A DNA stretch of 64,000 nt. Source: a virus. The DNA lies in IMG/VR virus record IMGVR_UViG_3300020055_000004; one strand, given 5' to 3'. A program made the translations under genes and the position numbers. Below are positions 45,124 through 57,184 of this stretch, one piece after another (the stretch's first letter is position 1; every line of letters begins with the position of its first letter). A model generated the notes under the pieces. The model did not search any database, had not been told where the DNA came from, and was given only the letters and a program-made list of their open reading frames with translations.

Positions 45124-45771
45124 ATGAATTATCAAATTGCTTATCAGGAACTCGGCGCCACTAAATTTTTACGTACTCATGGTCGCGATGTAGTAGAAAT
45201 CCTAGGACATAATGTTACTGTAAATAAAATCAATCGGTTTTTAGGTTCTCGTGGTAGTAATGTCTCGGATTTCTTTTGGCGAAATCGAAATCGATTGCAC
45301 ATCTATGGCATGTCTGTCGTCCAAGTAAATGAGAAATGCCGAATTAAAATTAATGCTATTGGCCCCCGCGGCAACGTATTAAATTTTGTTGAAAATACTA
45401 ATAAGCAACCTAATAAATTGGAGCCAGAAATGAAAGAATCTCTTAAGGTTCTGCAAGAATGTGCTGAAGTACAAGTTAAAAAGTCAAACGACTATCAAAA
45501 TGAATTCTCCCGCATTCGTCAAGCAGATTACTATCCTCGTGGTATCGCAACCATTACAGATCTAATCTATGCTAAAGTTCTTCGTATGCAATCAGTCATT
45601 GAAGCTAGTGAACGAGATCCTAACTATGAACCGAACTTCGAATCAATCGAAGATTCAGCTAAAGATCTAATCAACTATGCATCTTTTGTTGTTGCATATA
45701 TGCGTGGTAAGATGGATGGACAAGAATCTAACCGTGACTTTCTTAATAGGATCGTAAATGATTCAGAATAA
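45124..45771 (+). CDS. nucleotide-modification-associated domain (Nmad1/DUF1599-like) with N-terminal extension
   Basis: KKSNDY..K..R..ESIEDSAKDLINYA; internal GGAG+ATG at 45430. Confidence 0.7.
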   Translation: MNYQIAYQELGATKFLRTHGRDVVEILGHNVTVNKINRFLGSRGSNVSDFFWRNRNRLHIYGMSVVQVNEKCRIKINAIGPRGNVLNFVENTNKQPNKLEPEMKESLKVLQECAEVQVKKSNDYQNEFSRIRQADYYPRGIATITDLIYAKVLRMQSVIEASERDPNYEPNFESIEDSAKDLINYASFVVAYMRGKMDGQESNRDFLNRIVNDSE

Positions 45772-46435
45772 AGTAGAAGACATTCGTTGTTACTTTAAAC
45801 AAGCTCTTCACGAGAAACGTTTCACCACAGATAAGACTGGTCAAAAGACTATAGAACTTATTGGTGCTTCATTTCTCGCTGACGAGCCATCTATCTTTGG
45901 TAAACCGAATCAAAAATATATCAAGGCCGAAATCCAGTGGTATATGTCTCAGTCTACCAATATTAATGACATATATAGTAGAGATCGTAAACCACCAGAA
46001 GCATGGCAATATAGTGCTGATGCAAATGGTGAAATCAATTCTAATTACGGCTATCTCATTTATAACGAACGCTTTGGTAATCAATATAAGCAAGTTCGTG
46101 ATGAGATGATGAAGAATCCATACGGTCGCCGTGGTACTATGATCTACAATCGACCATCAATATGGCACGAGTACAACGAGGGTGGCAAGTCAGACTTTAT
46201 TTGTACCAATGCTGTAAGCTACTATCTTCGAGATCATAAGCTACATGCAGTGGTTCAGATGCGCTCTAATGATGTAGTCTTTGGTTATAAGAATGACTAT
46301 GCATGGCAACGATTTGTACTTGAAAATCTTGCATATGATATTAGCCTACCACAACACGATGTTGGTGTTGGTACAATCACGTGGCAAGTACAAAATCTTC
46401 ACGTATATGAACGACACTTTGATTTGGTAGAATGA
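45758..46435 (+). CDS. gp42: dCMP hydroxymethylase
   Basis: DKTGQKTIELIGASFLADEP, GEINSNYG, DFICTN, MRSNDVVFGYKNDYAWQ, LHVYERHF closely follow T4 gp42 as recalled, including the cytosine-specifying Asp. Confidence 0.9.
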   Translation: MIQNKVEDIRCYFKQALHEKRFTTDKTGQKTIELIGASFLADEPSIFGKPNQKYIKAEIQWYMSQSTNINDIYSRDRKPPEAWQYSADANGEINSNYGYLIYNERFGNQYKQVRDEMMKNPYGRRGTMIYNRPSIWHEYNEGGKSDFICTNAVSYYLRDHKLHAVVQMRSNDVVFGYKNDYAWQRFVLENLAYDISLPQHDVGVGTITWQVQNLHVYERHFDLVE

Positions 46436-46848
46436 GAGTAGGATTTACTGCTTCAGCATTTGATCTATTACACGCCGGACATGTCTCAATGCTAAGAGAG
46501 GCAAAGACACAGTGTGACTATTTGATTTGTGGTTTACAAGTAGATCCTGGTCTCGATCGATTAGAGAAAAACAAACCAATACAAACTTTACCGGAAAGAT
46601 ATATACAATTGTCAGCTGTAAAATATGTTGATGAGATTATACCTTATGAAACAGAAATTGATTTGAAGGATATCTTAGAAACATTAAAAATCGATGTACG
46701 TATTCTTGGTGACGAGTATCGTAATCTAGATTTTACTGGCAAAGAGATATGCCAACAACGTGGCATTGAATTATATTTCAATCAACGAGATCATAGGTTT
46801 TCAACAAGTGATCTAAGAAAAAGAGTAACGTTATGTACGGAGTCTTAA
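46432..46848 (+). CDS. cytidylyltransferase (TagD/glycerol-3-phosphate CT-like)
   Basis: FTASAFDLLHAGH (HxGH), YVDEII, STSDLR. Confidence 0.85.
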   Translation: MRVGFTASAFDLLHAGHVSMLREAKTQCDYLICGLQVDPGLDRLEKNKPIQTLPERYIQLSAVKYVDEIIPYETEIDLKDILETLKIDVRILGDEYRNLDFTGKEICQQRGIELYFNQRDHRFSTSDLRKRVTLCTES

Positions 46849-47309: not shown

Positions 47310-47547
47310 ACTTCGTGATCCTCAGTTCTATGTCGTATCGGCAAAGAATTTAGACGAGTTTATTGCGCGAGTAGAAAAAGAGTCAGGACAAGTTGTATTC
47401 ATCGCGATGAGCGTTGCAGATTACGAATTGATGTCCTATAATATGCAAGAAATCAAACGATATGTACAGCAGATGCAAGATGTGGTAGTATATTATCGTA
47501 GGGTAGTTGAAGACAACAATTCGAAAGTAGATGATAACAACAACTAG
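47158..47547 (+). CDS. o-spanin (Rz1-like lipoprotein)
   Basis: LLVLSISLTTG-C lipobox, Pro-rich segment; +1 frame overlap with the i-spanin. Confidence 0.7.
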   Translation: MYSTALKMLLVLSISLTTGCSFLRTPEPEVVIQTKVVRVPITQPILPREIELRDPQFYVVSAKNLDEFIARVEKESGQVVFIAMSVADYELMSYNMQEIKRYVQQMQDVVVYYRRVVEDNNSKVDDNNN

Positions 47548-48712
47548 ATATTATGATGAGTTTATAAGGTACTTTAATTTAGCCTCTAAACAACAAGAGC
47601 TATGTAATGTATCTAATAAAGAACCTTATGGGATGATCGCACACAAAGATTCGAATCTTGGTGATGATCTCATGGAGAATGTTGAATTGTATGATGTAGT
47701 CGAGCGTAAGTATGCTGGCTTCTCACAAATTATTAATGATTGCTTTTATGGATGGACTGAAGATCATCCATATTGGAAAAAGATGGAGGCGGGTGTGTGC
47801 ACTCGCCAACGAGAGACCGTTGCCAAAGACTGGACCGGTAAACACAACGTATTCTCTCTTCCTGAATGGCTGTATATTTTTATACTCCATCGGGTAACCG
47901 GTTCAGCAATTAACTATGCCCAAAAACCATCGGGCTATTATAACACCATACTATTCAATCTACATCAATGTGATACGATTGAAGAAATGGTGCAGCTGGT
48001 GAAACACTACCCGGTATCCTTTTATACTTCAGTCGGATACCAGTTCCCAGCATTTCCAAAACCAGTCGGTGACTATCGAAAGGGCGGCGACTATTACCTT
48101 GGTGAGTTCGCCCCAAGGCTGGCTCGAGATCTCGCGGACCATTTGACGATGGGTCCTAAAAAGGACCTTCGCGAGATTGGAGAGTTTATGCTGAAGTGGA
48201 ACGAGGACAACGGCCTTCGACGCTATCAGTTTCAGTACGCAGCAGTAGTGGCTGACGTCGCCGACTGGTTTCCCCAATATGTGAACCGTGAGAGCATGTT
48301 CTATTACGGTACAAATGCAGTAGAATGTATTTCATACCTCGCTTTTCCAGAAAAGAGGATGAAGAAAGAGTTGTTCCTTGATGCCGTCATGACAAAAATA
48401 TATGATGATACAGGAAGTGTACCATATAATGCCGAAGATGTATGTTGTGACTTCATTCGTTATGTTGAGAATTATGTCCGGCCAGGTCCGGATTATGATC
48501 ATCTAGATTATGATACCCTGTGGTCGTCATGCGGCATCAAGGATCACCCCTATGGCCGCCAGAAGTATATGCTAGATTTGGGTTTGGTAAATACTTTTAA
48601 TGGCATGAAAAATCATCCATCTGATGACTTCATTTTGAAGAAAAACAATATGACTGCTGAAGAGTATCAACATAATGTAAATGCGAGGCTCCGATACAAT
48701 GAAAATTTTTGA
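47531..48712 (+). CDS. amino acid:DNA transferase-like protein (aGPT-Pplase / HhH-glycosylase fold), paralog A
   Basis: AAVVADV..YYGTNAVECISYL..AEDVCCDFIRY resembles the GPGA..GL..E..LCE..K motifs; context. Confidence 0.55.
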   Translation: MITTTRYYDEFIRYFNLASKQQELCNVSNKEPYGMIAHKDSNLGDDLMENVELYDVVERKYAGFSQIINDCFYGWTEDHPYWKKMEAGVCTRQRETVAKDWTGKHNVFSLPEWLYIFILHRVTGSAINYAQKPSGYYNTILFNLHQCDTIEEMVQLVKHYPVSFYTSVGYQFPAFPKPVGDYRKGGDYYLGEFAPRLARDLADHLTMGPKKDLREIGEFMLKWNEDNGLRRYQFQYAAVVADVADWFPQYVNRESMFYYGTNAVECISYLAFPEKRMKKELFLDAVMTKIYDDTGSVPYNAEDVCCDFIRYVENYVRPGPDYDHLDYDTLWSSCGIKDHPYGRQKYMLDLGLVNTFNGMKNHPSDDFILKKNNMTAEEYQHNVNARLRYNENF

Positions 48713-48959
48713 TTTAGAACAACAGATCTTAGATTGTTGGAAAGTAACTGACGACATTGATTTGGTGACAAAACATTTTGTTGATAGTCCAGAATGGGAA
48801 GGCATTGATCCAAAAGTTTGTGATGCGCTGATGAACAAGTATTTTGCTATCAAAGAACTGTATGAATTGAAGTTCAATGAGATGTGGGAATCCTTTGAGA
48901 CAGTATGTAAAGAATATCATGAGGCAAGAAAAAATGACGCTGACTCACTTTCTAGGTGA
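48699..48959 (+). CDS. small hypothetical protein
   Basis: FDLEQQILDCWKVTDDI; GAGG SD. Confidence 0.55.
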   Translation: MKIFDLEQQILDCWKVTDDIDLVTKHFVDSPEWEGIDPKVCDALMNKYFAIKELYELKFNEMWESFETVCKEYHEARKNDADSLSR

Positions 48960-49926
48960 ACATGATAATGATATTCAATACAATAATATCGCTGAAGTAG
49001 ATTACAAAAACGGCAAACCAACATCATCGTGGCTAAAAGACTGGTGCCAAGAAGCTCGAACGAATAAGTTCTTCGAGTTTTGTCGTGCCTATGACGAGCG
49101 TAAAGACTTCCTGCTCAAGAATAACTATCAACAGTTCTCACATCGTTTGCACTGGCATGAGTGCCCGTTTGTCGAGGAAATGGCACAATTAAAAGATCGT
49201 GCCAAATTAATCGAAGGATGTGTCCTGTTTTCTTTTAGCAACGAGCATTGGCAAACATTTAGAGCATGGAAAGATCATGGCTATGATGGCATGAAGGTAC
49301 GGTTCTCGAATTATCGGCATGCACGTTCTGATCTCTTTCAGATCTATTATCCAAAAGATACCAAAGTCAAAGATTGGTTGATTGAAACACCAGCTCGTGT
49401 AGCAATTGAACTAGATGCGATGTTTGATGGCATGAGACGACCAATGACGATGATGGAGTTCGCCAAGAAGATGAATATCATCATGGTACGCGATTTTGGT
49501 TTTCGTAATGCCATGTATCCGTCAAAGAATGCAGCACGCCATGTTGCAATGAGTCATCCTGAATGGGTTGATCCTGACTCATTCTTACATGGCGGAACGG
49601 GATACTTCGATGGTCTATCACAAATCTTTGACTGTCCACATCTCATGTCAAAATCAAAGTATGAGATCGATGAGAATGGTGAATACGTACCAATGAATAA
49701 GTGGGCAGAGATGCAGGTCCAACACATGGACTATCTAAAGAATCATCCTAGCAATCCGATTCATACACATCAGTATCTCAACTTAGAAGACAAATTGTGT
49801 ATGCATTATAAATTTATGTCGATGAAACTTGGTTCCAAAAAACAGACAAAAATGATACCATATAACTGGGTGTATCCAGACAATTGGTCACTAAAAACAA
49901 ATAGGTACGATCGTGTCACACAATAA
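48934..49926 (+). CDS. amino acid:DNA transferase-like protein, paralog B
   Basis: NAARHVA..HGGTGYFDGLSQIF..LEDKLCMHYKF parallels the motifs of 47531. Confidence 0.5.
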   Translation: MTLTHFLGEHDNDIQYNNIAEVDYKNGKPTSSWLKDWCQEARTNKFFEFCRAYDERKDFLLKNNYQQFSHRLHWHECPFVEEMAQLKDRAKLIEGCVLFSFSNEHWQTFRAWKDHGYDGMKVRFSNYRHARSDLFQIYYPKDTKVKDWLIETPARVAIELDAMFDGMRRPMTMMEFAKKMNIIMVRDFGFRNAMYPSKNAARHVAMSHPEWVDPDSFLHGGTGYFDGLSQIFDCPHLMSKSKYEIDENGEYVPMNKWAEMQVQHMDYLKNHPSNPIHTHQYLNLEDKLCMHYKFMSMKLGSKKQTKMIPYNWVYPDNWSLKTNRYDRVTQ

Positions 49927-50794
49927 TCATGTAATCGATGGCGTTAATAAAGACGTAGGAGTTTTTGGCTATGAAGCAGCAAGAGAATATTATCTATCTT
50001 TGTGCGAAGGATGGGAACCGTACAACCCCGAACCGGTTGTACGAGAACACGATGGCATTCGAGTCGTACGAGATGACCTTATCGTGGGGACAAAAGCGAG
50101 AGCTGGAGATCTCCTTGCAAGTCGATGCCCCTCAGACACAATTGTATACTGTCAACCTCGCACCGGACTCGCCGGAGTTTCCATATTGGACTGTGCAAAA
50201 CGATATAATAAAGACGTAATACTATTCATGCCATCGTCTCAGCGCGTCTCTTTACATCAGGCATGCTGCATTGAACGTGGCGCTAAACCTATCTTTAAAC
50301 GTATCGCCGCTATGCCAAATTTAAACAAAGCAGCTAAAGAATATGCAGAGAAACACGGATACTTTTTTGTCCCACTCGGACTTAGACATGAATTGGCGAC
50401 TGCAGCTATAGTACACACTGCTATACAAATACCAGAACCTGAAGAAGTATATGTGGCTACATCGACAGGTGTACTTAGTAGGGCATTGCAAATCGCGTGG
50501 CCAAGAGCTAAGTTTACGAGTATCGCAGTGGCGAGGAATCTTAAAGCCGGAGAATTAGGAAGAGCAGATGTCATATCAGAACCACTCGCTTTTACAGCAT
50601 CTGAAAAGAAACAAAATTTACCTCCATTTCCTTCGATTGATACGTACGATGGAAAAGTCTGGAAGTACATTCCAAAAAACACGGGTCGGGATATTCTGTT
50701 TTGGAATGTTGGTACTGAACCTAGTTTACAAGACCATAACATATATGATAGAATAGATTCATATCGCGATTGGGAGAAAAAAGATGTTGCGTAG
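49913..50794 (+). CDS. PLP-dependent enzyme, fold type II (phage DNA-modification type)
   Basis: VRDDLIVGTKAR (Schiff-base Lys), VATSTG, DTYDGK, FWNVG. Confidence 0.8.
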   Translation: MSHNNHVIDGVNKDVGVFGYEAAREYYLSLCEGWEPYNPEPVVREHDGIRVVRDDLIVGTKARAGDLLASRCPSDTIVYCQPRTGLAGVSILDCAKRYNKDVILFMPSSQRVSLHQACCIERGAKPIFKRIAAMPNLNKAAKEYAEKHGYFFVPLGLRHELATAAIVHTAIQIPEPEEVYVATSTGVLSRALQIAWPRAKFTSIAVARNLKAGELGRADVISEPLAFTASEKKQNLPPFPSIDTYDGKVWKYIPKNTGRDILFWNVGTEPSLQDHNIYDRIDSYRDWEKKDVA

Positions 50795-51887
50795 TGGTTT
50801 AGTAGCTACACCGTTTATTACTATTTCACGCCAAATGACCAGCCATCGTGCTGCTCAAGGTGTAATATATGCAGATCAACTTTCTGAGGCCAATATTGGT
50901 ACAATTAAAGTAAACATGACAGGTGATCAGTATGTCTCCGATTTTTGTGATTTCGATGATCTTTATGTGTATCATGGTAATGATTGGTCTGGTAACGTTA
51001 ATCTCTTTGGCGGCCTCAAAAACTTCCCATATATTGAGAATTTTGTCAATTTCTCTCGTTTCGACGGCCGTGTGTATAGCCTTGTGGTCGACATGCCTGA
51101 CTATTATGGTATCATGAAAGAAAAGTTTGATAAAGCCAGAGAGAAAGGACAAGAATGGAATACTTTATGGGATGGCATTGATTGGGATAATCTGAAGCGC
51201 ATGTGTGAAACTGCAGTGACAATCAATCCTAATGATCTACGACATTATCCTCGCATGGCAATTGGTGACAGCCATGCCATTTGTATGTACCGACCAGGCT
51301 GGTCAAATCTATCAGTGCCATTTAAAACACTACACGGCGCATTAAAAGAAGGTCTTGAATCTTTTATTCCGAAAGATAGATGTTTTACTGATCTAGAATT
51401 TTATTTTGGCAACATTGATGTTCGTCATCATCTTTGTAGACAAGATGATCCAATTCTTGCTACTAAACAACTTGTTGCTCGTTATATGGAACAAGCACAT
51501 GCCATATCACAAAAATATAGTTGCCGTGTCAAGATCTATGAACTCTTGCCTATCGAAGACGAATCACGATCGATTCCAAAAACTGGTTGGTATAAAGGCA
51601 CTCCATTTTATGGCTCGCGCCAAGAGAGAAATGATATTCGTAAGTTGTTTAAAAATGAAGTAATGAAGCGTTGTACTGATGAAGTTCAGATATATGAATG
51701 GGTTGGCGAAATGATTAATTCAAAAGGCGAACTTGGTTTTGAATACATGGAGAAACCACAGTCGGTGCACTTATCTAGACGCTGGTATCCACATTGGCAA
51801 GGATATGAGTGGAGTCATGCTCCGTATATTGAATATATACCTACAGCAGAACGTGAACAATTAACGCTTGAGGATTTCTTTTCGTAA
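50784..51887 (+). CDS. two-domain protein: BGT-like N-terminus plus SGNH-like C-terminus
   Basis: IGDSH, FGNIDVRHH and SVHLS SGNH-type blocks; DFDDLYVY..NLFGG..VYSLVVD N-domain. Confidence 0.5.
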   Translation: MLRSGLVATPFITISRQMTSHRAAQGVIYADQLSEANIGTIKVNMTGDQYVSDFCDFDDLYVYHGNDWSGNVNLFGGLKNFPYIENFVNFSRFDGRVYSLVVDMPDYYGIMKEKFDKAREKGQEWNTLWDGIDWDNLKRMCETAVTINPNDLRHYPRMAIGDSHAICMYRPGWSNLSVPFKTLHGALKEGLESFIPKDRCFTDLEFYFGNIDVRHHLCRQDDPILATKQLVARYMEQAHAISQKYSCRVKIYELLPIEDESRSIPKTGWYKGTPFYGSRQERNDIRKLFKNEVMKRCTDEVQIYEWVGEMINSKGELGFEYMEKPQSVHLSRRWYPHWQGYEWSHAPYIEYIPTAEREQLTLEDFFS

Positions 51888-53095
51888 TGAAGCATGCAAC
51901 TATTATACCACTGATCGGAGGTGAAGTACTTGCCTCTGAGCAAGTCTTTGGTCATCGACCAGATTATATCTTATCTTATAATGCTTTTCAGGCAAATGAA
52001 GAACATCTACTAAATTATTGGAATCATGAGGTACCGTACTACGTTCTAGATGAAGGAGATCGCCATCCGCACTCAGTAGACGTAGTGTCCAGTGTATGTC
52101 CTTGTGCTGGCTTGTCATTGTTCAGTACGCGTTATGGAGAGGACAACAAAAACAATCGTTGGATGATTGAAACGGCTAAGTATGTTCTTGGCGAGATCAA
52201 GCCTCTTGTATTTTGGGGAGAGAATGCCCCAACTTTCACGGGTAAAATCGGTGAACCTATTCGAAACCAATTGATTCAAATTGGTAAGGAGAATGGCTAT
52301 GTCATGTCGATGTATAAAACGAAAAGTCTGTTACACGGTATACCACAAACGCGCGAGCGAACATTCTACTTCTTTTGGAAAGGTACACAAGTTCCGGTAT
52401 TTGACTACTATCGAAGAGAAATGCAAACTATCGAGGACCTTATCCTCTCCGTCGAGCGCGATCCTAATGATCCGATGTCCGAATGCATAAATCGAAACAA
52501 ACCAACCGACAATCCATTTTACAAATATATTTTGGAGGAGATTCATGGCGGTATTAGCCATCGCGACCACTTTGACCTTATCGATATCACTGATCCTAAA
52601 ACACCGAATTACTTGGACGTCTATAGCCTTATTGAGTCTCATAAGCATGATTACGCTCGCGTTGCTAAATGGTTAGAGGAACGTCAATATCATCGTGAAT
52701 CACAGCGTGCATTGCGAATGTATGATAAGCTAGAATCTGGTGGTAATATTATGCGCAGAGGTACTTTGTTGCCTAAAGGTCATATTGGATCTTTTGTAGG
52801 TCACTATCCACAAATGCTAACTCATCCTCATGAAGATCGATATATAACCTTTAGAGAGGCGATGACAATTATGGGTATGCCAAGTGACTATCAGCTTCTT
52901 AATCCGAAAGGTAGCTTCAATCATATATGTCAGAATGTTCCGTTTCAAACTGCAGCTGATATGGCAACCGAAGTAAAAGCTGTATTAAATGGAGAACGAG
53001 AATTGATTGACGCGCGCGTATCATTACAACATAATACATCAAAAAAATTAGAAATTTTAGATAGAGAAGTATCTACACTAGATGCATTTTTATAG
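51887..53095 (+). CDS. DNA cytosine-C5 methyltransferase-like protein with atypical SAM motifs
   Basis: CPCAGLS (IV), ENA (VI), GIPQTRER (VIII), RYITFREAMTIMGMP (IX); motif I reads IIPLIGG. Confidence 0.8.
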   Translation: MKHATIIPLIGGEVLASEQVFGHRPDYILSYNAFQANEEHLLNYWNHEVPYYVLDEGDRHPHSVDVVSSVCPCAGLSLFSTRYGEDNKNNRWMIETAKYVLGEIKPLVFWGENAPTFTGKIGEPIRNQLIQIGKENGYVMSMYKTKSLLHGIPQTRERTFYFFWKGTQVPVFDYYRREMQTIEDLILSVERDPNDPMSECINRNKPTDNPFYKYILEEIHGGISHRDHFDLIDITDPKTPNYLDVYSLIESHKHDYARVAKWLEERQYHRESQRALRMYDKLESGGNIMRRGTLLPKGHIGSFVGHYPQMLTHPHEDRYITFREAMTIMGMPSDYQLLNPKGSFNHICQNVPFQTAADMATEVKAVLNGERELIDARVSLQHNTSKKLEILDREVSTLDAFL

Positions 53096-53147: not shown

Positions 53148-54122
53148 ATGGAACTTAATATTCCAGTACAAGAGTTACAAAAATATAAAATCTTTTTGGC
53201 GACACCAATGTATGGTGCACAATGTTCTGGAATGTATGCTAGATCGTTGGCTGAATTGACAACAACATGTCAGCGATATGGCATTCCATTACAATTTTAT
53301 TTTCTATTCAATGAATCGTTAGTTACACGAGCACGTAATTATTGTGTAGATGAATTTATGCGATCTGATTGTACACATCTTATGTTCATTGATTCAGATA
53401 TTCATTTTAAGGCACATGATGTAGTATCTCTATTAGGAATGATGCATCAATATCCTGAGATGGATGTATGCTGTGCTCCTTATCCGAAGAAAACAATTGC
53501 GTGGGAAAAAATTAGTGAAGCAGTAAAACAAGGTGTAGCTGATGAGAATCCAAATGTTCTAGAAAACTTTGTTGGTGATTATGTCTTCAATCCTATTAGA
53601 CAAAAAAATGGTGAAAATTATATTAAACTAACTCAACCTGCAGAAGTAGCTGAGGGTGGTACAGGCTTCATGATGATCAAGAAGTCAACCTTTGAAAAAT
53701 ATAAAGAAACATATCCTCAATTCATGTATCGTCCTGATCATGTTCGAACAGCAAACTTTGATGGAAGTACTGAGATCATGGCATACTTCGATGCTCTCAT
53801 TGATGATAAGTCACAAAATCTTGTACCTGAAATCAAAGCATTCTTTAAAAAGAATCCAAATGCAAAAAATAGAGATGTCATCAACTTTATTGAAGATAAG
53901 AAAAATGGCATCGATCAAAAGTCATATTCGAATAGATACCTGTCCGAAGATTACATGTTTTGTTATAATGTAAGACGTGCTGGTATGAAAGTATTCATGT
54001 GTCCTTGGATGGAACTCAAACATATGGGCGCATACGTATTTGGTGGTTCATTGGCAGCTATTGCATCTATTGGTGCAGCGGCTACAGCTGATCCCTCTAA
54101 ACTTGGTGAAAAGAAAAAATAG
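53148..54122 (+). CDS. GT-A fold glycosyltransferase-like protein
   Basis: ATPMYG, ESLVTRARN, LMFIDSD (DxD), GTGFMMI, LSEDYMFC. Confidence 0.7.
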   Translation: MELNIPVQELQKYKIFLATPMYGAQCSGMYARSLAELTTTCQRYGIPLQFYFLFNESLVTRARNYCVDEFMRSDCTHLMFIDSDIHFKAHDVVSLLGMMHQYPEMDVCCAPYPKKTIAWEKISEAVKQGVADENPNVLENFVGDYVFNPIRQKNGENYIKLTQPAEVAEGGTGFMMIKKSTFEKYKETYPQFMYRPDHVRTANFDGSTEIMAYFDALIDDKSQNLVPEIKAFFKKNPNAKNRDVINFIEDKKNGIDQKSYSNRYLSEDYMFCYNVRRAGMKVFMCPWMELKHMGAYVFGGSLAAIASIGAAATADPSKLGEKKK

Positions 54123-54133
54123 GAAACTATACT

Positions 54134-54790
54134 ATGAAACTTAATGCTCGATCTGTACAGGTCTTGAAAAACTTCTCAACAATTAATCCTTCGATTCAAT
54201 TTCGCGAAGGTAATGCGTTGAAAACAATCTCGCCTAATAAGACTATCATGGCAAAAGCAAATCTCGAGGATAATATTCCTCAGGACTTTGCAATCTATGA
54301 TTTGTCTAGATTTCTTGGTGTATCATCTTTGTTTGCAGATCCGGACTTTCAACTTGAAGATCGTACTGTAGTGATTACATCACCGGGTCGTAAGGTAAAT
54401 TACACCTTTGCAGATCCTAACACTATTGTTGCACCACCTAACAAAGATATCGATATTGGTGACGCTGATGTATCATTTGAACTCAATCAAGAAAACTTCG
54501 CCGAAATTATGAAAGCTCTTGGTGTAATGTCATTTCCTGAGTTGGTGGTTGCTGGTGAAGATGGTCGTATTATTTTACGAGCCACTGATACTAAGAATCC
54601 AAGTTCAGACAAATATGATATTGAAGTTGGTGAGACTGATCGAACATTCACCGCAGTATTCAAGACAGAAAATGTCAAGATCTTACCAGATAATTATCGT
54701 GTAAGTTTGTCATCGCGTGGCATCTCACACTTCGCTTCAGACGATGTTGAATACTGGATCTCAATTGAATCCAACTCAACATTCGACTAA
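54134..54790 (+). CDS. gp45: sliding clamp gp45
   Basis: LKNFSTINPSI..FAIYDLSRFL..YWISIE. Confidence 0.93.
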   Translation: MKLNARSVQVLKNFSTINPSIQFREGNALKTISPNKTIMAKANLEDNIPQDFAIYDLSRFLGVSSLFADPDFQLEDRTVVITSPGRKVNYTFADPNTIVAPPNKDIDIGDADVSFELNQENFAEIMKALGVMSFPELVVAGEDGRIILRATDTKNPSSDKYDIEVGETDRTFTAVFKTENVKILPDNYRVSLSSRGISHFASDDVEYWISIESNSTFD

Positions 54791-55241: not shown

Positions 55242-56480
55242 ATGGGTACGAAAAGGAGTTACAAACCGGAGGCAGTAGATAAGCTACGAGGATCAGTACA
55301 AATTGATCATACACTCGCGAGGCTTGGAGCAAGGAAGCTGAGACAACTATTCGAAGAAAACGAATATATTAACACATTTGGTGCATACAATGGGCAACAA
55401 GCTGTACAACATGTCAAGGCAGGATTAAAAGCAATCTATTGTTCTGGTTGGCAGGTAGCAGCATCTCAGAACTCGGCCGGCGAAGTATATCCGGATCAAT
55501 CCTTGTATCCTGTAAACTCTGTACCTGATGTTGTTCGAAATATTAATAATGCGTTTAGGCGACAAGATCAAATTGATGTATTAAATGGTGGAGATGGTTT
55601 TGATTTTGCACCTATTATCGCAGATGCAGAAGCTGGATTTGGAGGAGTACTAAACGCATATGAACTGGCACGAAATCTCATTGAAGCCGGTGCTGCAGCT
55701 GTGCATTTCGAAGATCAGCTCGCTTCTGAAAAGAAATGCGGACACCTCGGTGGTAAAGTACTTATTCCGACTAGCAGTGCTGTTCGTAATCTTAACGCCG
55801 CTCGACTTGCTTCTGATGTGGCTGGTACTGACACAGTCATCATTGCCAGAACAGATGCAGAATCTGCTAAACTCCTTTCATCTGACGTAGATGCAATGGA
55901 TAACAAATATATCAAGAGATATGGTGGTCAAGGATCCGCTACAATGCGATCTCGTACATCAGAAGGTTTCTTTGAAATTAATGGCGGTTTAGATTTTTGT
56001 ATAGAACGAGGTCAGAGATATGCAGAGTACGCTGACCTGATATGGTGTGAAACCTCGAAGCCTTGTCTTAAGGAAGCAAAAAGATTTGCTGACGGCGTAC
56101 GTGGCGCATATCCTGATCAAATGCTAGCATATAATTGTTCGCCTTCTTTTAATTGGAAGAAAGCAATTCCAAATGATCAAGAACTTGCAGAGTTTCAACG
56201 TGAGTTAGGTAAGTTAGGATTTAAGTTTCAGTTTATTACATTAGCTGGCTTTCATGCAACAAACTATGCTGTTTTTGACTTCGCTCGACGATATAAAGAA
56301 GATGGTATGTTTGCCTATTCATTATTGCAAGAAGATGAGTTTAACAGTGAAATCTTTGGATATACTTCAACCAAACACCAACAAGAAGTTGGAGTCGGAT
56401 ACTTTGATGCAATATCTAACGTGCTTGGTTCTTCGTCAACGGCTGCACTCAAAGGTTCCACAGAAGAAGAACAGTTTTAA
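55242..56480 (+). CDS. aceA: isocitrate lyase
   Basis: [54 protein letters not shown]. Confidence 0.96.
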
Positions 56481-57184
56481 TGGATTTGATTAAGAGCAAG
56501 TTTGACATTAAGGGTTGGACTCTCTTAACAAATTTTTTGACACCAGAAGAACACGAATATTATCTCGATATATGTGATCATATTCTTCTTAATAGAATTC
56601 AGCCGTCATATAAATGGGCGCTCAACTCAAATGGTACTATAAACAAATTACACGGTGCTTGTGAGACCGTCCCTGCATTTCGAAAATTGGCCAGTCATCC
56701 ATCTTTGATTCGTCAGGCTAAAAGCTTATTGCCATTTGAAGAAGAAATGGATATCTATATCAGTAAGTTCTTCCCTATGCAGCCAAAAGCAATTTCTACT
56801 TTGATGCATCAAGATAATTATTTTTTTCGTGGAGATCCTCAAAAAATATTATCATGTGCTGTATATCTTCAAAATACATCAACAGAAAACGGATGTCTGC
56901 GTGTTGTTGAAGGTAGTCATTTGAGAGGTATATTTCCTCATAATATTGATGAGGAAGGAATTGCTCAGTGGATCGACCAGCGAGAACTTACAGATTATAA
57001 AATAATAGAACTTAATTTAAAAGCACCTTATGCTGTATTTTTTAACATAAATCTAGTGCACGGCTGCAGTATGAATATGACTGATTCAACTCGATACAGT
57101 TTAGCATGGGAATATGTAAATAAAACCGACAATAATTTGACGGTTTCCGCTGAAAAATGGTGTGATAGAATTTCTGTCTTATAA
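56480..57184 (+). CDS. PhyH-family 2OG-Fe(II) dioxygenase
   Basis: HQD, ENGCLRVVEGSH, LVHGC, R. Confidence 0.85.
   Translation: MDLIKSKFDIKGWTLLTNFLTPEEHEYYLDICDHILLNRIQPSYKWALNSNGTINKLHGACETVPAFRKLASHPSLIRQAKSLLPFEEEMDIYISKFFPMQPKAISTLMHQDNYFFRGDPQKILSCAVYLQNTSTENGCLRVVEGSHLRGIFPHNIDEEGIAQWIDQRELTDYKIIELNLKAPYAVFFNINLVHGCSMNMTDSTRYSLAWEYVNKTDNNLTVSAEKWCDRISVL

Follow-up and report, generated by a model that had tools for sequence, protein, structure and literature searches.

The locus and its two-domain protein

The DNA analysed here (the window, 64,000 nucleotides) belongs to a T4-like virus record, IMGVR_UViG_3300020055_000004, of 163.7 kb and about 91% completeness, and the genes of the region lie on the + strand. 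At 50784..51887 the window encodes a protein that joins an SGNH-fold domain to a homologue of the N-terminal acceptor domain of T4 beta-glucosyltransferase (BGT). This protein, hereafter BGT-N/SGNH, probably acts on the modified cytosines of the phage within a kinase-free DNA hypermodification pathway. The original prediction, made from the letters alone, knew of no described enzyme with this architecture, and our literature searches found no earlier description either. All motifs that it had quoted are present in the reading frame: DFDDLYVYHG...NVNLFGG...FDGRVYSLVVDMP at residues 56-105, IGDSH at 160-164, FGNID at 208-212 and SVH at 327-329. The protein has the following features.

50784..51887, + strand: open reading frame (ORF) of the two-domain BGT-N/SGNH protein, 367 amino acids (aa), phrog_13881; the start overlaps the stop of the upstream pyridoxal phosphate (PLP) enzyme gene by 11 nt
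50790..51233, + strand: N-domain, residues ~3-150, a homologue of T4 BGT's N-terminal acceptor domain
51234..51848, + strand: SGNH-fold domain, residues ~151-355, with Ser163 of GDSH at codon 51270-51272
51411-51413 and 51768-51770, + strand: codons of the SGNH-domain residues Asn210 (GNID) and His329; the domain also holds the invariant basic residues R214, H216, R262 and R282
51849..51884, + strand: C-terminal tail, which ends in TLEDFFS; the phage's own gp43 has the identical last seven residues

The family comprises 1158 proteins at E ≤ 1e-3 in a word-indexed search and 410 representatives at 50% identity in an exhaustive search. Nearly all members come from uncultured phages. The cultured-phage records that carry the protein are from phages of Aeromonas (38), Stenotrophomonas (2) and Tenacibaculum (3), and every one is annotated as hypothetical. 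In PHROGs, the family falls into two groups without known function, phrog_13881 and phrog_17781. A Pfam scan assigned no family even at E 10, the family profile had no match to PDB sequences at E 10, and megablast of the region against cultured phages returned no match. The viral structure library contains relatives only as uncharacterised proteins.

N-terminal domain

The AlphaFold2 model, built from an alignment of 86 diverse homologues (down to 26% identity) that was also used to score conservation, has two domains (pLDDT 96.4, pTM 0.92). The proposed resemblance of the first domain to BGT goes beyond chance, as pairwise BLASTP to T4 BGT gave an E value of 0.004 over residues 53-104. The family profile matched the T4 BGT sequence with 80.7% probability (E 1.3e-5), and its comparison by hhalign with a profile of 32 BGT sequences gave 97.7% probability (E 2.5e-12) over 102 columns, aligning residues 3-114 with BGT 1-115. 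The structural check agreed, since Foldseek ranked BGT third for this domain with a probability of 1.00. When the Pfam BGT model PF09198 was run over the whole 163.7-kb genome, the single match was to residues 50-104 of BGT-N/SGNH, and this match is sub-threshold (12.4 bits against a cut-off of 27 bits, E 0.009); no canonical BGT was found in this genome. Taken from sequence profiles and the predicted structure, the shared descent of the N-domain and the acceptor half of T4 BGT is confirmed.

N73, F75, G76, G77: These conserved residues belong to an N-x-F-G-G loop common to both families. The equivalents of N73, G76 and G77 in BGT are N70, G73 and G74.

S20-H21, D58, G65, D/E67: These positions are also conserved. 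Among them, S20-H21 (84 of the 86 sequences), G65 and D/E67 are conserved in the N-domain family's own right.

D103: The claim that the catalytic Asp of BGT is retained in the N-domain did not hold. Asp103 is present in our protein, yet the column contains Pro in 29, Asp in 21 and Glu in 13 of the 86 homologues, and the profile alignment leaves T99-D100, an invariant pair among BGTs, facing a gap.

Beyond BGT residue 115, hhalign found no match. We also considered a complete but divergent GT-B glucosyltransferase, given that the lengths are alike (367 against 351 aa in BGT) and that IGDSH might echo YGGSFR of BGT. This candidate was rejected because the C-terminal half is clearly SGNH. Like T4 BGT (GT63, PF09198), the protein has an N-terminal Rossmann-like acceptor domain for DNA or 5-hydroxymethylcytosine (hmC). 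Unlike BGT, it carries an SGNH domain in place of the UDP-glucose-binding C-domain, does not conserve the equivalent of Asp100 and stays below the Pfam threshold, and therefore it is not a glycosyltransferase.

SGNH domain

The replacement of the UDP-glucose half of BGT by an SGNH domain was predicted correctly, as seen from the Foldseek fold match and from the point at which the hhalign alignment stops. Foldseek matched PAF-acetylhydrolase Ib (PAF-AH Ib) with E 3.6e-6, and sialate O-acetylesterase and PatB were also matched. Its closest relatives within the SGNH class (PAF-AH Ib, sialate O-acetylesterase, PatB, OatA and acetyl-xylan esterases) all have acetyl specificity. The assignment of the C-terminal half (residues 148-355) to the SGNH fold is firm. 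By order and secondary-structure position, Ser163 matches SGNH block I, and Gly185, Asn210 and His329 probably match blocks II, III and V.

S163: In the model, block I consists of a strand (157-161) followed by a helix (163-168), with Ser163 at the junction.

G185 and N210: These putative oxyanion-hole residues (block II Gly and block III Asn) are at least 90% conserved among the homologues and follow strands 2 and 3 in the order expected. Block III reads GNID rather than GxND.

G161, D162, S163, H164, D212, R214, H216, R262, G277, R282, E323, H329: These residues are invariant in all 86 homologues.

Unlike the known SGNH/GDSL enzymes (PAF-AH Ib alpha, sialate O-acetylesterase, PatB/OatA, CE2/CE3), the protein gives no sequence-level match to the Pfam SGNH families, has a block V without Asp and shows the additional invariant residues H164, R214, H216, R262, R282 and E323. 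It is also cytoplasmic and joined to a DNA-enzyme domain. The translation contains no Walker A motif. In the literature we found no report of an SGNH protein that acts on DNA or of an SGNH enzyme in phage DNA modification.

C-terminal tail

A genome-wide ORF search for tails of the form L-(D/E)-x-F-(F/L) returned three real genes only: the DNA polymerase gp43 (KVSTLEDFFS), BGT-N/SGNH (QLTLEDFFS) and a C5-cytosine methyltransferase-like (C5-MTase-like) protein (VSTLDAFL). The polymerase is 31% identical to T4 gp43 over its full length, and T4 gp43 ends in KASLDFLFG. Work on T4 and RB69 has established that the C-terminus of gp43 binds the sliding clamp gp45. Since the last seven residues of BGT-N/SGNH are identical to those of gp43, we read the tail as a probable gp45 clamp-binding peptide, judged by its sequence. 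The polymerase and BGT-N/SGNH tails are alike in three of four other genomes, one of which has LESFF in both proteins, and the fourth has a BGT-N/SGNH protein without the tail; polymerase-like tails thus occur in four of the five genomes checked. Most close relatives keep the tail, and it is absent from most distant members.

Gene neighbourhood

The local gene order is MazG, Nmad1, gp42, (cytidylyltransferase, spanins), unkA393, unkB349, PLP enzyme, BGT-N/SGNH, C5-MTase-like, GT-A-like, gp45. Neighbours were counted in 80 related IMG/VR loci (given per 81), and because many of these are short contigs, the counts are minima.

45758..46435, + strand: gp42 orthologue, dCMP hydroxymethylase (E 5e-71 to T4 gp42, 1b49), with NDYAW aligned to NDYAW of T4
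47531..48712, + strand: unkA393, helical AADT/HMUDK_hel-like partner with invariant Cys266 and Cys306; its domain is fused to BGT-N/SGNH in other phages
48877..49926, + strand: unkB349, divergent unkA393 paralogue, in about half of the related loci
49913..50794, + strand: fold-type II PLP enzyme, phrog_7093, immediately upstream of BGT-N/SGNH in 74/81 loci
51887..53095, + strand: C5-MTase-like protein, ends in STLDAFL; optional, 16/81 loci
53148..54122, + strand: GT-A-like protein, phrog_1574, frequent downstream neighbour, 48/81 loci
54134..54790, + strand: gp45 sliding clamp

As the cluster contains a gp42 orthologue, the phage makes hmC. In addition to the counts in the list, unkA393 was detected in 54 loci, gp45 in 48 and unkB349 in 41. 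BGT-N/SGNH, a helical partner and the PLP enzyme are kept together across at least three gene orders, and distant relatives (30-36% identity) retain the trio of BGT-N/SGNH, unkA393 and PLP enzyme in other gene orders. A scan with a single distant member (P0241) found nothing.

In a set of variant loci (each neighbour in 14 to 17), the PLP enzyme is replaced by a myo-inositol-1-phosphate synthase and an FkbM methyltransferase, and BGT-N/SGNH and a helical partner stay. The order there is DUF6378, BGT-N/SGNH, myo-inositol-1-phosphate synthase, FkbM methyltransferase and an HMUDK_hel protein that stands alone (PF18723, E 2.3e-13), with DNA polymerase B and ribonucleotide reductase genes downstream. 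L097:9685-14446 is an example, and about 16 loci are similar (L087, L091, L094-L096, L101, L102 and others). This cassette hints at a cyclitol-derived, possibly methylated, modification of a DNA base.

BGT-N/SGNH is consistently accompanied by, or fused to, a helical HMUDK_hel/AADT-like protein, and a pyrimidine hydroxymethylase (here the gp42 orthologue) goes with the pair. The linkage to hydroxymethylases extends to relatives. At L124:12077-13891, a protein of 605 aa fuses a thymidylate-synthase-like hydroxymethylase (PF00303, E 1.6e-28) to an unkA393-type domain and lies beside a BGT-N/SGNH homologue; in L138, a separate thymidylate-synthase-like hydroxymethylase gene is found beside BGT-N/SGNH.

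Helical partners and absence of a kinase

BGT-N/SGNH itself has no HMUDK_hel domain, and the helical partners are separate genes in this phage. With profile HMMs built here, an unkA393-type domain was found fused C-terminally to the BGT-N/SGNH region in six representatives at 50% identity and in the L086 ORF (786 aa, from a 225-kb phage), with E values from 1e-36 to 1e-122. Two further fusions contain domains of the HMUDK_hel type. One (P0148, 981 aa) combines FkbM, HMUDK_hel and BGT-N/SGNH, with PF18723 at E 4.5e-11. The other, of the Aeromonas 44RR type (P0192, 795 aa), matches the Pfam-positive HMUDK_hel-type profile (A8) with E 1e-75. We regard unkB349 as a divergent unkA393 paralogue because the unkB349 profile matches the same region of some fusions as the unkA393 profile; a direct hhalign of the two was not significant. 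In the ESM-Atlas, both are nearest to clusters that carry PF18723 (HMUDK_hel) and PF18724 (ADDT), with scores of 0.96-0.97. A further homologue search for the helical partners returned only close, unannotated relatives.

PF18723, which we take to be the helical domain of every canonical 5-hydroxymethyldeoxyuridine (5-hmdU) DNA kinase, has no match in this genome or in four relatives with near-complete genomes, and its sole match in 44RR lies inside the BGT-N/SGNH fusion. A canonical (helical-domain-bearing) 5-hmdU DNA kinase was found in none of the nine genome records searched. Conversely, BGT-N/SGNH is absent from cultured thymidine-hypermodifying phages at E 1e-5. The two proteins appear to be mutually exclusive in genomes.

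Proposed function and rival explanations

That BGT-N/SGNH is a DNA-directed enzyme is strongly supported, because its gene lies in an hmC/hypermodification cluster near gp45, it has a polymerase-like clamp tail, and its relatives are fused to HMUDK_hel/AADT-like domains. The known thymidine pathways start from 5-hmdU in DNA, to which a P-loop kinase adds a phosphate. A cysteine-dependent AADT then exchanges this phosphate for an amino acid, which is trimmed by PLP enzymes and others (PMC8989533). AADTs require an activated 5-hydroxymethyl group, which the 5-hmdU DNA kinase (5-HMUDK) provides (PMC8989533). In our cluster, a hydroxymethylase, AADT-like proteins and a PLP enzyme are present, the kinase is not, and BGT-N/SGNH is the sole constant extra component; hence, a generic activating step is the most economical reading of its role. 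By this analogy, we propose, with a probability of roughly 0.4, that it esterifies the 5-CH2OH of hmC in DNA via a Ser-acyl intermediate and so activates hmC for a transferase in the kinase's place. The constant transferase-like partners together with the missing kinase favour such an activating role in a longer pathway over a stand-alone acyltransferase.

The BGT-type N-domain would present 5-hydroxymethylcytosine of newly replicated DNA to the catalytic domain, and the polymerase-like C-terminal peptide would dock on the gp45 clamp and hold the enzyme at the fork. An acyl-enzyme would form on Ser163 from a putative donor, with His329 and Asn210 assisting. Because the nearest SGNH relatives are acetyl-specific, an acyl group of about the size of acetyl is probable. 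Passed to the 5-CH2OH of hmC, it would yield an ester that serves as the leaving group for the neighbouring or fused helical AADT/HMUDK_hel-like transferase. This transferase would swap the ester for a nucleophile. Accessory enzymes that vary between phages would make or trim this nucleophile: the PLP enzyme here, and myo-inositol-phosphate synthase and FkbM methyltransferase elsewhere. BGT-N/SGNH would thus fill the role held by the P-loop domain of 5-hmdU DNA kinase in thymidine hypermodification. The broader notion of an SGNH serine acyl-enzyme that acts on DNA bases at the fork, with amino-acid or cyclitol:DNA transferases displacing an hmC ester where the kinase route would offer them a phosphate, is put forward tentatively, at rather less than even odds.

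Several observations speak against activation by esterification. No conserved acyl-donor gene was found in the cluster, the characterised SGNH acyltransferases (PatB, OatA) depend on membrane partners for the acyl group, and in the cytoplasm most SGNH proteins act as hydrolases. The DxxH motif of block V lacks its canonical Asp, as the residue three positions before the invariant His329 is variable; the invariant Glu323 may stand in for it. The link of unkA393 and unkB349 to AADTs draws on language-model (ESM-Atlas) similarity and on parallel fusions. Pfam scans of all members gave no sequence link, PF18723 and PF18724 run over this genome did not match either protein, hmmsearch of both against PDB sequences returned nothing, and hhalign against the fused proteins and the Pfam-positive HMUDK_hel group gave nothing significant. 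Moreover, C5-MTase-like enzymes can exchange hmC groups without prior activation, and given this exchange an activating step may not be required. Finally, the unusual, invariant Arg/His cluster R214, H216, R262 and R282 could indicate a phosphate-bearing substrate and hence a different chemistry.

The original prediction had proposed that an acyl group is transferred to, or removed from, hmC, which is plausible. The same architecture and catalytic set would equally serve an O-acyl or O-aminoacyl transferase that decorates hmC with a stable ester in the last or next-to-last step, with the helical partners binding DNA or adding a second, separate group. The PLP enzyme next door in most loci would need a free alpha-amine, as found on an aminoacyl ester. 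We consider this end-product role unlikely, since an ester attached to a DNA base is labile, the close joining to transferase-like domains suggests that the two steps follow each other, and BGT-N/SGNH stays constant while the accessory enzymes vary (PLP enzyme against inositol-phosphate synthase and FkbM), which better fits a generic step. A DNA-base esterase or hydrolase, which would use water as the acceptor and strip an acyl or other ester-linked group from a modified base or intermediate for maturation, proofreading or erasing, agrees with the hydrolytic nature of most SGNH proteins, the top structural matches included, and with a cluster that contains no acyl-donor gene. Nothing in the cluster would make the ester in the first place, however, the problem of activation without a kinase stays unsolved, and a hydrolase has no obvious need for fusion to a transferase-like domain, so that we judge this function decidedly unlikely.

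Non-acyl transfer on the SGNH scaffold is a long shot. Here, Ser163, His329 and the Arg/His cluster would handle a phosphoryl or other anionic group, and the protein, by making phosphomethyl-C, would functionally replace the kinase in the full sense. The invariance of H164, R214, H216, R262, R282 and E323 beyond the SGNH blocks fits this chemistry, as does a domain order that parallels 5-HMUDK (activating domain, then HMUDK_hel), and known AADTs displace phosphate (PMC8989533). Against it, no SGNH-fold phosphotransferase was found among the structural matches, there is no nucleotide-binding motif, and contacts with the DNA backbone could explain the basic residues equally well. That the protein is not a DNA enzyme at all, but an esterase that acts on a small molecule or on a polymer of the host envelope, with the BGT-like domain as a generic Rossmann-like module, is very improbable indeed in view of the profile-profile match to BGT, the position of the gene in a replication/hmC cluster instead of a tail module, the polymerase-like clamp tail, the fusions to HMUDK_hel-type domains and the linkage to hydroxymethylases.

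Comparison with known hypermodification systems

For 5-HMUDK (P-loop kinase plus HMUDK_hel) of phages M6, ViI, PaMx11, PhiW-14 and SP10, the role is the one we propose for BGT-N/SGNH, i.e. activation of a 5-hydroxymethylpyrimidine in DNA for an AADT, and its layout of a catalytic domain followed by HMUDK_hel is matched by the fused relatives. Unlike 5-HMUDK, BGT-N/SGNH has no P-loop and an unrelated fold, its substrate is probably hmC and not hmU, and the proposed leaving group is a carboxylate and not a phosphate. The cluster as a whole follows the pathway logic of thymidine hypermodification (hydroxymethylase, 5-HMUDK, aGPT-Pplase/AADT, PLP decarboxylase; PMC8989533), with which it has in common a pyrimidine hydroxymethylase, AADT-like helical proteins that are often paired and a fold-type II PLP enzyme. 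It differs in that the base is cytosine (gp42 orthologue), no kinase is present and BGT-N/SGNH is added. Optional C5-MTase-like and GT-A-like proteins, a T4-like replisome and clamp-tailed enzymes set it further apart. We therefore describe it as a phage hydroxymethylpyrimidine hypermodification cluster built around an undescribed enzyme architecture.

If our proposal is true, hydroxymethylpyrimidine hypermodification can run without a kinase, by a second logic that is widespread in aquatic T4-like phages. If the chemistry holds, the SGNH acyl-enzyme would be a new class of DNA-modifying enzyme and would extend the small set of classes that work on bases in polymeric DNA. The clusters suggest that abundant aquatic phages have cytosine decorations of undescribed chemistry, derived from amino acids and possibly from cyclitols, and enzymes of this type are potential tools for selective labelling of 5hmC.

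Cultured phages

The fused form is carried by the cultured Aeromonas phages 44RR2.8t, 31 and 25. These T4 relatives make hmC and have no glucosyltransferase, and Petrov et al. 2010 explicitly left open what becomes of their hmC (PMC2993671). In 44RR, we found gp42 (47% identity) and no BGT. The HMUDK_hel-fused BGT-N/SGNH family is the obvious candidate for the fate of hmC in 44RR, 31 and 25, and as these phages can be grown, the question is testable.

In 44RR2.8t, the 795-aa fusion of BGT-N/SGNH and HMUDK_hel follows directly after a sodium:solute symporter homologue (L001:4399-8379; ORF234c, ORF233c). The group that is finally attached to the DNA might be taken up through this phage-encoded symporter homologue.

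Tenacibaculum phage PTm1 encodes a two-domain homologue of 339 aa, gp050 (L084:6551-7570; BFVD TM-score 0.68-0.73). It sits amid ribonucleotide reductase genes in a 225-kb phage, and no gp42-like gene was detected in that record.

Further observations on the neighbouring genes

PLP enzyme: In cultured phages, homologues occur only within genes that carry the annotation DNA modification methylase or ParB. The phages are the Erythrobacter phages vB_EliS_R6L and ZS04 and the Microcystis phage Mae-JY30, which suggests that the PLP domain is fused to other DNA-modification enzymes there.

C5-MTase-like protein: This gene is found in an hmC phage, on whose DNA C5 already bears a substituent.

Cytidylyltransferase-like gene: This gene (46432-46848, phrog_7878) follows gp42 and has no counterpart in the 80 most closely related loci. 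A few distant loci (L089, L116, L122, L123) have weak homologues (34-44%) close to BGT-N/SGNH.

ORF 48681-48959: This ORF of 92 aa bridges unkA393 and unkB349, is conserved in four related loci (36-86% identity) and has no Pfam match. It overlaps the annotated start of unkB349, the true start of which is maybe residue 15.

55242-57184: This region holds an ORF of 412 aa without a PHROG match, followed by an ORF of 234 aa that matches phrog_274 weakly. One related locus (L077) encodes a protein 68% identical to the 412-aa product.

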